A program made the translations under genes and the position numbers. Of a DNA stretch of 64,000 bases, positions 53,202 through 56,381 are shown one piece after another. Source of the DNA: Thermodesulfobacteriota bacterium. GTDB taxonomy: Bacteria; Desulfobacterota_D; UBA1144; Nemesobacterales; Nemesobacteraceae. The notes beneath the pieces are model-generated. The model saw only the letters and a program-made list of their open reading frames with translations, did not search any database and had not been told where the DNA came from. Positions within the stretch are counted from its first letter, which is position 1. Every line of letters begins with the position of its first letter. The DNA lies in assembly GCA_965249045.1 (NCBI GenBank), contig OZ252213.1, forward strand, positions 799,971-863,970. Direction: 5' to 3'.

Positions 53202-53786
53202 CTAGTTTCTGATTACCTTAAGAGAATCCTTGAGAACGTCCTCGATGGATTCCGAGACTTCGATGATTTTTTTGATCTCGGAGGTTTTTTTCTCCACCTC
53301 AGACCTAGTGTAACCCAGGTTAAGCAGCGCGGAGACCGTATCGTTTAACATGGTGTTTGATATTGAGGACTCTTCATCCACAGCGAGATCATCAAGCTTG
53401 TCTTTAAGTTCGTTTACTATCTTGGTGGCGGTTTTGGTGCCGATTCCGCGGATTTTTCTCTGCGCGAGGGTTCCGTTTGTTATGGATCTTACAAGCTCCG
53501 GAACTGAAATGTTGGAAAGCACGTTTGTTGCCGCTTTTGGTCCTATGCCGGAAACGCTGATGAGTTTTTCAAAAAGTTTTTTCTCCTCGTCGGTGAGAAA
53601 GCCGAACAGTTCGATGCTGTTTTCCCTGTGACTGGTGTGTATTTTCAGTTCAACCTTTCCCCCGACTGCTCCCAGATCGTAGTAAGTCGAGAGGGGAACG
53701 GTAACGCCGTAGCCGACCCCGCCTACGTCAACGACGACGGTTCCGATTTCCTTACAAGCGATTACGCCTCTAAGCAGATAGATCAT
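53202..53786 (-). CDS. ruvA: Holliday junction binding protein RuvA
   Basis: GGVGY, LFGF, VSGIGPK, ALLNLGY. Confidence 0.95.
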   Translation of the reverse strand: MIYLLRGVIACKEIGTVVVDVGGVGYGVTVPLSTYYDLGAVGGKVELKIHTSHRENSIELFGFLTDEEKKLFEKLISVSGIGPKAATNVLSNISVPELVRSITNGTLAQRKIRGIGTKTATKIVNELKDKLDDLAVDEESSISNTMLNDTVSALLNLGYTRSEVEKKTSEIKKIIEVSESIEDVLKDSLKVIRN

Positions 53787-54357
53787 TTATCGTGTATCTC
53801 TTTTTCCTGCGTCGGTTGCCTACGCCTTTAAGCTCACCGTCCGGCATTCCGTATCTTGAAAAGTTTAAGTGGCAGATCGCGATCGCAAGCGCGTCGGACT
53901 CGTCCGTGCTCCGAAATTCACTGACTCCGAGCATGTAGGAGAGCATTTTCGCCATCTCTTCCTTGCCCGCCCTGCCTTTGCCGGTCAGGGCAAGCTTTAC
54001 CCTCGTTGGGGCGTACTCGCTTACCGGTATTCCCCTTTGCGCCGCCGCCAGGATTACTACCCCTCTTGACTGGCCGAGTTTTATGGCGCTCCTCGCGTTT
54101 TTGGCGAAAAACATCTCCTCGACCGATACGACCGATGGACCGTAATCGTCAATTACTCTCAGGATTCCGACGTAAATGTCGTTAAGTCTTTCGGCAGTTG
54201 AGCTTCCGGATGCGGGAGCAATCGCTCCGCTGGTTACGTAGCTTAGCTGGCTCCCCGAGCCGTCCACGATTCCGTAGCCGCAGTATCTTGATCCCGGGTC
54301 AATTCCCATGACCCTGGTGTCGGAATTATTATGGGAATTATATACAATGCTATCCAT
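53770..54357 (-). CDS. ruvC: Crossover junction endodeoxyribonuclease RuvC
   Basis: GIDPG, VEEMFF, DESDALAIA; the first 8 codons come from the inserted element. Confidence 0.93.
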   Translation of the reverse strand: MDSIVYNSHNNSDTRVMGIDPGSRYCGYGIVDGSGSQLSYVTSGAIAPASGSSTAERLNDIYVGILRVIDDYGPSVVSVEEMFFAKNARSAIKLGQSRGVVILAAAQRGIPVSEYAPTRVKLALTGKGRAGKEEMAKMLSYMLGVSEFRSTDESDALAIAICHLNFSRYGMPDGELKGVGNRRRKKRYTINDLSA

Positions 54358-55630
54358 CAGTTGGTCAGCCTCGCATCAATTTCACGGTTCACAGGGGCTG
54401 TACTAATACCAGCACCCTCCCCGTGCAGTTGCGCCATTCTTAGACGCCGGATGTTTACCGCGGCGTTCGTATCCGCATTGGATACGAAGCCACAACAAAC
54501 GCATTGGAACCGCGATTGAGTTTTGCGGTTCTCTTTATGTGCATGCCCGCATTCCGAGCAGGTTTGCGAAGTGTAGGCGGGATGCACTTCAATCAGTCTC
54601 CCACACTTGTATTCCAAGTTCTTTCTTATCTTCCCGAAGGCCGTATCCAGAATTCCGCTGTTCAATCTGGCTTTCTGCCTTACGTTTTTCCCGGGATTTT
54701 CAACTGTTCCTTTTGCGGAAGCCGTCATGTTCCTGACCTTGAGGTCTTCCACCGCAAGAGTTCCGCATCTGCCTGCCAATTCTCTGGTAGTTTGATGAAT
54801 CCAGTTCTTGCGTATGTTGGCTATCTTCCTGCTTACCTTCCGGAGTTTCTTCTTGGTATCTTTCCGCCTGTTTGAACCTTTGACCTGTCGCGCCATCTTC
54901 CTTTGATACCACTTCCTTCTTGCTTCTTTCTTGCTCATGTCGGGCATAAAGTAAGAATGTCCATCTGAGTCGGCAAGCTGGTGGATGTTCATGTCGATAC
55001 CGAGAACCTCGCTGCCATCAGCTTTTTCTTCTACTTCGACTTCGTAGAAGACAAAGGCTCTCCACCTCTGTCCGTCATGGCGAAGCACCACCTGCTTCGG
55101 TGTGCCGTTCTCCCAAGGATTGCCTCCCCCGCGCACCAGTTTCACCCACCCAACCCTGGAAACACGAAGCAAGGTGTATTTGCCTTCACGGTTTTTTATT
55201 TCAAAGTTGTTTGTATCGGGAAGAATGAAGCTGGGAGCAGTCCTCTTTCTGCTTCTTGGCTTCGGAAAGCCCTTATTACCTTGCATTGCTTGTTTCAAGG
55301 CATCCGCAAAATGCTTGAGTGTATATTTAACTGGATTGGCGGGAAGTTCCCGCAACCATGCCGTCTCGTGCCTCAGCTTGGTAAACTCCACACCTAGGCT
55401 GAAATAGCTGGCAGACGGCCTGTTCCCATTGCCGTCCCTGAACTTCTGGTAACTGCTAAGGTTCTTCTCTCTGAAATGGTTCCAGACAAACCTGCAGGCT
55501 CCAGCTATCCGAAACATCTTCCTTGCCTTGGCCCTGCTTGTGGGCAGGACAACGAACTCCACCGAACGGATTTCTTTGCTCATTGTCATCTGCTCTGCGC
55601 GATTGATGGGTAAAATTGTATATAATCCCC
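54333..55630 (-). mobile_element. Non-autonomous TIR-bounded element carrying tnpB; 8-bp target site duplication
   Basis: TIRs at 54333-54359 and 55604-55630 (23/27 identical); ATTATTAT at 54325-54332 and 55631-55638; no transposase inside. Confidence 0.85.
54357..55589 (-). CDS. tnpB: RNA-guided endonuclease TnpB family protein
   Basis: GACRFVWN; RuvC-I GIDMN, RuvC-II VEDL, YTSQTCSECG..CVCCG Zn finger, RuvC-III NADTNAA. Confidence 0.93.
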   Translation of the reverse strand: MTMSKEIRSVEFVVLPTSRAKARKMFRIAGACRFVWNHFREKNLSSYQKFRDGNGNRPSASYFSLGVEFTKLRHETAWLRELPANPVKYTLKHFADALKQAMQGNKGFPKPRSRKRTAPSFILPDTNNFEIKNREGKYTLLRVSRVGWVKLVRGGGNPWENGTPKQVVLRHDGQRWRAFVFYEVEVEEKADGSEVLGIDMNIHQLADSDGHSYFMPDMSKKEARRKWYQRKMARQVKGSNRRKDTKKKLRKVSRKIANIRKNWIHQTTRELAGRCGTLAVEDLKVRNMTASAKGTVENPGKNVRQKARLNSGILDTAFGKIRKNLEYKCGRLIEVHPAYTSQTCSECGHAHKENRKTQSRFQCVCCGFVSNADTNAAVNIRRLRMAQLHGEGAGISTAPVNREIDARLTN

Positions 55631-55634
55631 ATTA

Positions 55635-56381
55635 TTATCCAATTGCTTCGAGTAATTGTTCGTCTATATCGAAGTTGGCGTACACGTTCTGAACGTCGTC
55701 GCTGTCTTCAAGCGCTTCCATGAGCCTTATCATGTGCTCGGCATCCCGGCCTTCAATCCTCACGCTTGTCTGCGGTATCATGGTGACTTCGGCGGATTCG
55801 TACTGGATTCCGGCATCGGAAACCGCTCTTTTTACTGTTTCATAGTTCTCAGTCGGAGCTACCACCACGATCTCGCTGTCTTCGGTACGCACATCGTCGG
55901 CCCCTGCGTCTATAACCAGATCGAAAAGAGTGTCCTCATCAACCGAGTCTGTCGGAAATGCGATTCTTCCCCTCAGATCGAACATCCACGCCACGCAGCC
56001 GTTCTCGCCTAGCCCTCCGCCGTGTTTCGTGAATATTCTTCTTATTTCGGAGACAGTCCTGTTTTTGTTGTCGGTAAGAGTCTTTACGTATACGGCGCTT
56101 CCGCCGGGTCCATAGCCTTCGTAGAATATTTCGTTGTAGACTACTCCCTCGATGTCCCCTGTGCCCCGCTTTATCGCCCTGTCGATCGTGTCGTTAGGCA
56201 TGTTAGCGCCCTTCGCGGTCGCTATGGCGGTGCGAAGACGCGGATTGGATTCCGGATCGCTTCCTCTTTCCTTCGCGGCAACCGTAAGTTCCCTGATAAG
56301 CTTGGTGAATGCCTTGCCCCGCTTGGCGTCAACCGCAGCTTTTCTGTGTTTTATATTTGCCCATTTGGAATGACCCGCCAT
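55635..56381 (-). CDS. yebC: YebC/PmpR family protein
   Basis: [31 protein letters not shown]. Confidence 0.95.

Follow-up and report, generated by a model that had tools for sequence, protein, structure and literature searches.

We analyzed a 64,000-nucleotide stretch of the Thermodesulfobacteriota bacterium contig OZ252213.1 (assembly GCA_965249045.1, positions 799,971 to 863,970 of the forward strand), referred to below as the window, in which the spacer between the host genes yebC and ruvC is occupied by an element whose sole long open reading frame (ORF) is tnpB. The element is 1,298 bp long (positions 54333-55630). Its ends are terminal inverted repeats (TIRs) identical at 23 of 27 positions when the left TIR is compared with the reverse complement of the right (24 of 30 over a longer comparison), and both are flanked by the same 8-bp target site duplication (TSD), ATTATTAT. 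An earlier interpretation based on the letters alone (the sequence-only reading) had described these TIRs and flanking 8-mers, and an interior holding only tnpB with intact RuvC D/E/D residues and zinc finger. The coordinates were reproduced exactly, and the interior was confirmed to contain one long ORF with residues that are invariant in relatives. Within the window, two occurrences of the 16-nt terminal pattern were found, both at the element ends, compared with 0.07 expected from shuffled sequences; none of 100 shuffles reached two. The left TIR contains the tnpB stop codon (TGA), and the start codon (ATG) is situated 14 nt inside the right one. Since tnpB fills the shell from TIR to TIR, there is no space for subterminal ends of the IS605 type.

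The protein carries the Pfam domains OrfB_IS605, Cas12f1-like TNB and HTH_OrfB_IS605. It scored 215.7 bits against the NCBIfam model guided_TnpB (cut-off 100) and remained under the cut-offs of IS200_TnpB (153 versus 425) and IS607_TnpB (100.7 versus 350). Full-length alignments were obtained with the solved TnpB chains 8h1j and 8bf8 (E ~1e-28), in which the D/E/D and cysteine motifs match their equivalents. Residues D199, E281 and D373, as well as C344, C347, C363 and C366, are unchanged in an alignment of relatives showing 35-77% identity; the first three we take to be the catalytic positions of ISDra2 TnpB. By its domain architecture, RuvC D-E-D residues and zinc finger, the protein is assigned to TnpB, the ancestor of Cas12, and is predicted to have nuclease activity.

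The uninterrupted target site was found in relatives. At 10 of 10 same-genus loci the yebC-ruvC spacer consists of TCGGA, one 8-mer and CCAATTGC, and the element is absent. In the closest relatives, whose flanks are 96% identical, ATTTTTAT stands in place of the two ATTATTAT copies of this genome. Metatranscriptome (RNA-library) contigs from three of four runs (P1 and P4 codes) join position 54324/6 to 55631/3, skipping 1306 bases, i.e., the 1298 of the element plus 8. The insertion is thus polymorphic among close relatives. The sequence-only reading had named an empty yebC-ruvC allele with a single 8-mer as support and a site not collapsing to one copy as evidence to the contrary; as only one 8-mer is present at the empty site, the latter objection fails.

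The genome, a single 1.88-Mb contig estimated to be 97.95% complete, whose close homologues are publicly labelled as Candidatus Dadabacteria of sponge metagenomes, contains four further copies, with 74-79% protein identity to the window TnpB. Three of them have perfect, mutually different 8-bp TSDs and one has none. Together with the window locus and 37 loci from same-genus genomes, these made up a set of 42 homologous loci, of which three had no recognizable 3' end or ran off the contig edge, two had no 5' candidate, and 37 had both ends. Among these 37, the TSD copies matched at 8/8 positions in 21 cases, 7/8 in two, 6/8 in four, and five or fewer in 10; one of the last ten became perfect once an end was shifted by 1 nt. 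The TSDs vary from site to site, with the exception of one orthologous insertion common to three genomes. Conservation in the 37-sequence alignment ends exactly at the TIR tip. The copies with the same TIRs and different TSDs anticipated in the sequence-only reading therefore exist (21/37 perfect), and the homologous copies end at the TIR tips rather than at boundaries inside the TIRs. Within the genome of origin, all nine tnpB loci, representing three lineages at 24-29% mutual identity, are enclosed in shells of the GGGRnTTATA type, six with perfect 8-bp TSDs, two with 7/8 matches (interrupted by insertion sequences) and one without a TSD.

Transposases with corresponding ends are encoded in the same genome, which yielded 12 matches to DDE_Tnp_IS1595. 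The transposases located in TIR-bounded elements carry DDE_Tnp_IS1595 and Zn_ribbon_IS1595 domains and scored 169-189 bits against NF033547 (NCBIfam IS1595; cut-off 75). At least seven transposase-bearing elements, 1.3-5.6 kb in size and some with passenger genes, have GGGRnTTATA at both ends and perfect 8-bp TSDs. The best TIR identity between a tnpB shell and a transposase-bearing element was 25/26 (E308 versus E1109), and IS1595 elements with matching ends, as called for by the sequence-only reading, were thus found. That reading had further placed the ends in the ISNwi1 subgroup of IS1595 on the basis of an end consensus, and we regard this placement as putative. It is solely from the shared ends that we infer a partnership between TnpB and the transposase. 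In 35 same-genus genomes, both tnpB and an IS1595 transposase occurred in 18, tnpB only in four, the transposase only in eight, and neither in five. This co-occurrence is weak and the relatives are non-independent, and it was not used as support. The four tnpB-only genomes (G006, G015, G016 and G065) may contain stranded copies or assembly gaps. No Resolvase match was found in the genome, and the only Y1_Tnp match was weak and partial (33.5 bits, genome position 270481) and far from every tnpB.

Other IS1595-type elements of this genome have features of their own. Elements with an intact transposase (L042, L044 and L041) carry between their TIRs an ankyrin-repeat protein and SocA/Panacea-domain proteins with small partners, together with several ORFs without a Pfam match. 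At L046:201-5516 (676458-681773), two different IS1595 elements are arranged head to tail, and the 8-mer AAACTTTT is present three times, i.e., before, between and after the pair; therefore, the TSD left by the first insertion served again for the second. In addition to an N6/N4 methylase-HNH fusion, the first member of this pair carries a transposase that is split. The second tnpB lineage, in IS1595 shells with 7/8 TSD matches (L043:201-3002 and L045:201-5764), is represented by interrupted tnpB copies, one disrupted by IS256 and the other by IS21 (istA/istB) and IS110.

The distribution of the shell outside the genus was examined in a scan with one genome per species. TnpBs of 40-48% identity were identified in metagenome-assembled genomes (MAGs) labelled Gammaproteobacteria, Pseudomonadales, Alphaproteobacteria, Rhodothermales, Bacteroidota and others. 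In 17 of 31 such loci, the same TIR type and a perfect 8-bp TSD enclose tnpB as the sole gene, the element length being 1.27-1.46 kb. The remaining loci included one with a 7/8 TSD, two with no inverted repeat, and others with weaker TSDs. A copy with 37% identity, from a different family of the order to which this genome belongs, is enclosed in the shell as well. In a 24-row tree, built without the second tnpB lineage (T2, whose interrupted pieces were left unjoined) and the truncated ORFs L157 and L177, these TnpBs formed one clade with 100/100 support, separate from six plasmid TnpBs, of which three lie beside a Y1 tnpA and three are solo. This phylogeny, one of the checks suggested in the sequence-only reading, was complemented by a negative control, in which none of five plasmid TnpB loci scanned (two with Y1 tnpA, three solo) had an IS1595 shell. 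The third tnpB lineage of the genome forms a long separate branch, and the tree therefore forces at least two gains or losses. A separate observation concerns the Rhodothermales MAG OY760427.1 (L176-L210), in which an unusually large expansion was seen: at least 23 loci contain a 41-43%-identical tnpB, and several of the copies checked have the TIR shell and perfect TSDs.

The 3' end of tnpB is conserved in a manner that differs from the rest of the gene. Over the last 30 codons, identity at the third codon position rises from ~0.72 to 0.86, while that at the first and second positions drops, which indicates a second constraint on the sequence of this region. A four-helix structure was drawn by hand on a 27-sequence alignment across phyla. 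The candidate scaffold of the guide RNA (omega RNA) defined in this way overlaps the last ~40 tnpB codons and the entire 3' TIR, and its end coincides with the element tip. In the drawn structure 95.4% of cells were paired; shuffles gave 85.3%, and sliding the partners gave 28-49%. Compensatory changes were present in 8 of 17 pairs, amounting to 39 cells versus 10.0 ± 2.4 in shuffles, and none of 500 shuffles reached the observed value. In helix 4 (terminal), an internal segment pairs with the inner bases of the TIR, and all four of its pairs are compensatory. The covariance model derived from this alignment (R1) matched the window at genome positions 854303-854443 (122 bits). It recognized all five copies of the window lineage (122-137 bits), each match ending at the element tip, and gave weak full-length matches (~25 bits) at the 3' tips of both other tnpB lineages of the genome; no stand-alone RNA copies were found by R1 in the genome. 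A structure obtained with RNAalifold from the first alignment was partly different and had a weak covariation term (-2.86), and was replaced by the four-helix structure and the broader alignment. In silico, these comparisons predict a structured RNA at the 3' terminus of tnpB, extending as far as the end of the transposon.

A different arrangement was observed in another genus of the same order. Locus L125:369-1753 encodes a 401-aa TnpB homologue (46% identical) that is nested in the TIR-shelled clade and lacks an IS1595 shell. Downstream of its gene are three direct repeats of 39 nt with a period of 66 nt, separated by 27-nt spacers, the last repeat being degenerate. The first repeat extends the conserved RNA scaffold and ends in the TIR-tip-like ...ATTCCC. 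The contig begins close by and the array is possibly cut off. The repeats look like a mini CRISPR-like array born from the end of the omega RNA.

The flanks of the insertions were compared in tnpB orientation at 43 sites, comprising 21 unique sites from Dadabacteria and 22 unique sites from 53 loci in other phyla. The control set consisted of 32 elements with perfect 8-bp TSDs, obtained from 50 regions surrounding IS1595 transposase genes. The 4 nt directly 5' of the TSD give the consensus A-W-G-R, in the tnpB orientation only. A purine occupies position -1 in 43/43 of the tnpB elements and in 15/32 of the transposase-carrying ones (Fisher p = 1.9e-8), and this purine is G in all 22 sites outside Dadabacteria; position -2 is G in 27/43 and 6/32, respectively. 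The first TSD base is A in 35/43 tnpB sites. At the mirror position +1 a pyrimidine was found in 22/43 sites, which is the chance level, and there is no motif in the 3' flank. The control elements have a palindromic target, AAWnnWTT, and no 5' motif (position -1: A8, C9, G7, T8). Because a transposase acting on near-identical ends should not sense the orientation of its cargo, this asymmetry was read as selection exerted by the cargo. The purine motif 5' of the TSD looks like a target-adjacent motif (TAM).

Table 1. Positions of the tnpB element, its predicted parts and the neighboring genes in the window
Feature	Position	Strand	Remarks
Left TSD copy, ATTATTAT	54325..54332	.	3' copy in tnpB orientation; first 8 nt of the predicted guide
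Left TIR	54333..54359	+	3' TIR in tnpB orientation; contains the tnpB stop codon
tnpB (410 aa, RNA-guided nuclease family)	54357..55589	-	RuvC D/E/D and CxxC..CxxC zinc finger
Candidate omega RNA scaffold	54333..54473	-	Covariance model R1, 122 bits; covarying pairs; third-codon-position identity
Predicted guide region (TSD and adjacent flank)	54313..54332	-	Analogy with TnpB/Fanzor RNAs; scaffold end position
Right TIR	55604..55630	-	5' TIR in tnpB orientation
Right TSD copy, ATTATTAT	55631..55638	.	Holds the yebC stop codon
TAM-like 4 nt directly 5' of the TSD (tnpB orientation)	55639..55642	-	TTGG; family consensus A-W-G-R
yebC	55635..56381	-	Host gene upstream of the insertion
ruvC	53770..54309	-	Downstream host gene, with ruvA and ruvB after it

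At the left end, a weak sigma-70-like site is present at 54328-54356 on the minus strand (TGGATA, 17 nt, CATAAT; 9/12), composed of the TIR tip and the TSD. It reads outward to ruvC, which the insertion separated from yebC, and is not above chance. A promoter and terminator scan gave two promoter-like and one terminator-like sites, which is no more than in shuffles.

The locus is best explained, with a probability of roughly 0.88 by our estimate, as a non-autonomous IS1595-family element whose sole cargo is an intact tnpB with a predicted guide RNA gene. Its interpretation as a DDE transposon is strongly supported by the sequence comparisons. The element is placed in the IS1595 family by its shared ends and 8-bp TSD, and as its own transposase is absent it is classified as non-autonomous and not as an insertion sequence proper. 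The capture of an RNA-guided nuclease by a DDE transposon mobilized in trans, as proposed in the sequence-only reading, agrees with the comparison of copies, empty site and partners; the novelty claimed for it was overstated, as the general idea is already present in the main text of Altae-Tran et al. 2023 (PMC10691335).

In the mechanism that we propose, IS1595 DDE transposases encoded elsewhere in the genome would act on the 27-bp TIRs and integrate the element, duplicating 8 bp of the target; judging from the sequence comparisons, the element entered the yebC-ruvC spacer after this lineage split from its nearest sampled relatives. The omega RNA would be transcribed through the tnpB 3' end, its scaffold overlapping the last codons and the inner 3' TIR forming one strand of the terminal helix. 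By analogy, the RNA would continue into the TSD and flank, which may act as the guide. Such a guide would match the empty allele, where the target is preceded by the purine-rich A-W-G-R as a putative TAM; in the occupied allele the same sequence follows the pyrimidine-rich TIR tip (...TCCC) and would be spared. TnpB might then cleave donor sites that are empty or have been rejoined, so that repair has to proceed from an occupied copy, as proposed for IS605 TnpB, and a cut-and-paste element would be kept in place. A broader joint reading would extend this to an old cross-phylum TnpB clade, present solely as transposase-less IS1595 cargo, with a guide RNA fused to the transposase binding site through the 3' TIR as the terminal helix of the scaffold, the TSD and flank as the guide, a purine TAM directing cleavage of empty or rejoined sites, and the TIR tip protecting occupied ones. 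The TnpB-sized effector of L125 would have arisen from the same clade, the repeat of its mini CRISPR-like array stemming from the TIR-containing end of the scaffold. As a whole it is tentative, and we consider it somewhat more likely to fail than to hold. If true, it would represent RNA-guided homing serving a DDE cut-and-paste transposon in bacteria.

Several observations weigh against the interpretation as an IS1595-borne tnpB with a functional guide RNA. The sequences in which the pairs were counted are those from which the RNA structure had been drawn by eye, the single-sequence fold of the 3' 160 nt was no better than that of shuffles (z = -0.71), and an Rfam scan of positions 54200-55800 gave no match at E values up to 1. 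The RNA-library coverage (Logan contigs) consists of the flanks and the empty-site junction, with none over the element. As regards the partners, the closest TIR match of the window element, E676, is identical at only 21-22 of 26 positions and its transposase ORF is split; tnpB and a transposase were not found within one element among the copies examined; and of the 22 same-genus genomes that carry this tnpB, four lack a match to an IS1595 transposase. Ten of the 37 two-ended copies have TSD matches at no more than five of eight positions, and the copy E788 in the genome of origin has none; recombination, decay or end-calling may account for these poor TSDs. Finally, the asymmetry of the flanks is a correlation, and it could have arisen through selection unrelated to TAM recognition.

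Two other explanations were weighed. It is hardly credible that a Y1-mobilized tnpB element of the IS200/IS605 type inserted into a pre-existing miniature inverted-repeat transposable element (MITE) derived from IS1595, to which the TIRs and TSD would then belong. In favor of such a history, the genome often shows MITEs and nested insertions, and two other tnpB shells hold IS256, IS21 and IS110. However, with its start codon 14 nt inside one TIR and its stop codon within the other, tnpB leaves no place where IS605 ends could fit, and homologous copies in several phyla all end at the TIR tips. Moreover, the conserved RNA fold pairs with TIR bases, and no Y1 transposase is located near any tnpB in the genome.

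It is also unlikely that the element was mobilized by IS1595 once and that tnpB is now a passive or domesticated passenger with neither omega RNA nor homing, the 5' flank bias resulting from target choice by the transposase, polar effects on adjacent genes, or sampling. Against a passive passenger, relatives with 35-77% identity share the catalytic residues and zinc finger without exception, and the insertion is polymorphic among close relatives. In its favor, the function of tnpB is predicted here from sequence, and most TnpB clusters are immobile according to the main text of Altae-Tran et al. 2023 (PMC10691335). The unremarkable single-sequence fold favors the absence of an omega RNA, and is opposed by the codon-independent conservation and compensatory pairs at the 3' end. 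A transposase could in principle sense orientation from the TIRs, which differ systematically at inner positions; nevertheless, the transposase elements with the same TIRs have the palindromic AAWnnWTT target and no 5' motif.

As a non-autonomous IS1595-family element with an intact tnpB, the locus can be compared with DDE-linked TnpBs described earlier. The main text of Altae-Tran et al. (2023, PNAS; PMC10691335) reports six such branches (DDE-1 to DDE-6) bounded by inverted terminal repeats. It also describes solo TnpBs whose enclosing ends are almost the same as in elements with a transposase, and for these it proposes mobilization in trans. It names IS630 (DDE-6) only, and IS1595 has 0 occurrences in it; the clade described here may overlap with one of DDE-1 to DDE-5. 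A 2026 review (PMC13565253), in the part of its text compared here, lists ISL2, IS630 and IS1031 as DDE partners, describes the TnpB-DDE association as rare in prokaryotes, and asks how the nuclease benefits a cut-and-paste element. As in the branches of Altae-Tran et al., a prokaryotic TnpB is enclosed by DDE-transposon inverted repeats and its 3' end lies near the transposon end. Unlike in those branches, the transposase is never in the same element among the copies studied here, and the RNA-TIR pairing and the TAM-like asymmetry do not appear in the text of PMC10691335 compared here. A literature search for IS1595 or ISNwi1 together with TnpB, assessed for IS1595 by titles and the opening lines of abstracts, revealed no description of the pairing. 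We consider the IS1595 partner family and architecture, the predicted RNA-TIR fusion and the TAM-like asymmetry as new, DDE-linked TnpB in general having been published already.

To our knowledge, IS605 and IS607, whose excision leaves no scar, are the only elements for which the selfish role of TnpB has been elucidated. The present system is compact and multi-copy and has clear ends, partner transposases in the same genome, a predicted guide RNA overlapping the transposase binding site, and a candidate TAM deduced from natural insertion sites. Such a natural system could be used to test the role of TnpB in a DDE transposon.

The element also resembles Fanzor1/Fanzor2* in TIR transposons of eukaryotes and viruses (PMC10711439), which, in the part of that paper compared here, are likewise non-autonomous and encode the nuclease only, with clear TIRs and short TSDs; in the same text (Yoon et al. 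2023), the TIR and TSD are described as part of Fanzor guide RNA scaffolds. It differs from them in its bacterial host, canonical RuvC arrangement, IS1595-type shell and 8-bp TSD, and kinship with the clade ancestral to Fanzor is not claimed.

The statement in the sequence-only reading that IS200/IS605 and IS607 elements have neither TIRs nor TSDs agrees with the compared part of PMC13565253, IS200/IS605 being defined further by subterminal hairpins and insertion beside a target of 4-5 nt. Similarly to the solo-tnpB elements of the IS1341 group (IS200/IS605), the element is ~1.3 kb long and carries tnpB alone, with the transposase presumably acting in trans; unlike IS200/IS605 elements, it has both TIRs and a TSD. 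Membership in IS200/IS605 (IS1341 group) was rejected on the basis of the TIRs and TSD, the ORF reaching both TIRs, and the IS200_TnpB score below cut-off. Assignment to IS607 was rejected on the basis of the missing Resolvase match, the TIRs and TSD, and the IS607_TnpB score. Close relatives are publicly annotated as 'IS200/IS605 family element transposase accessory protein TnpB', and since the transposase is never adjacent, gene-neighborhood surveys may mislabel such elements as ordinary IS200/IS605 tnpB.

Passenger-carrying elements are known in the IS1595 family (ISfinder grouping), and the transposase-bearing relatives in this genome are of that kind, holding passengers between the same TIRs with 8-bp TSDs. 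In contrast to these, the passenger of the element described here replaces the transposase wholly, belongs to the RNA-guided nucleases, and is accompanied by a predicted RNA that makes use of the TIR itself.

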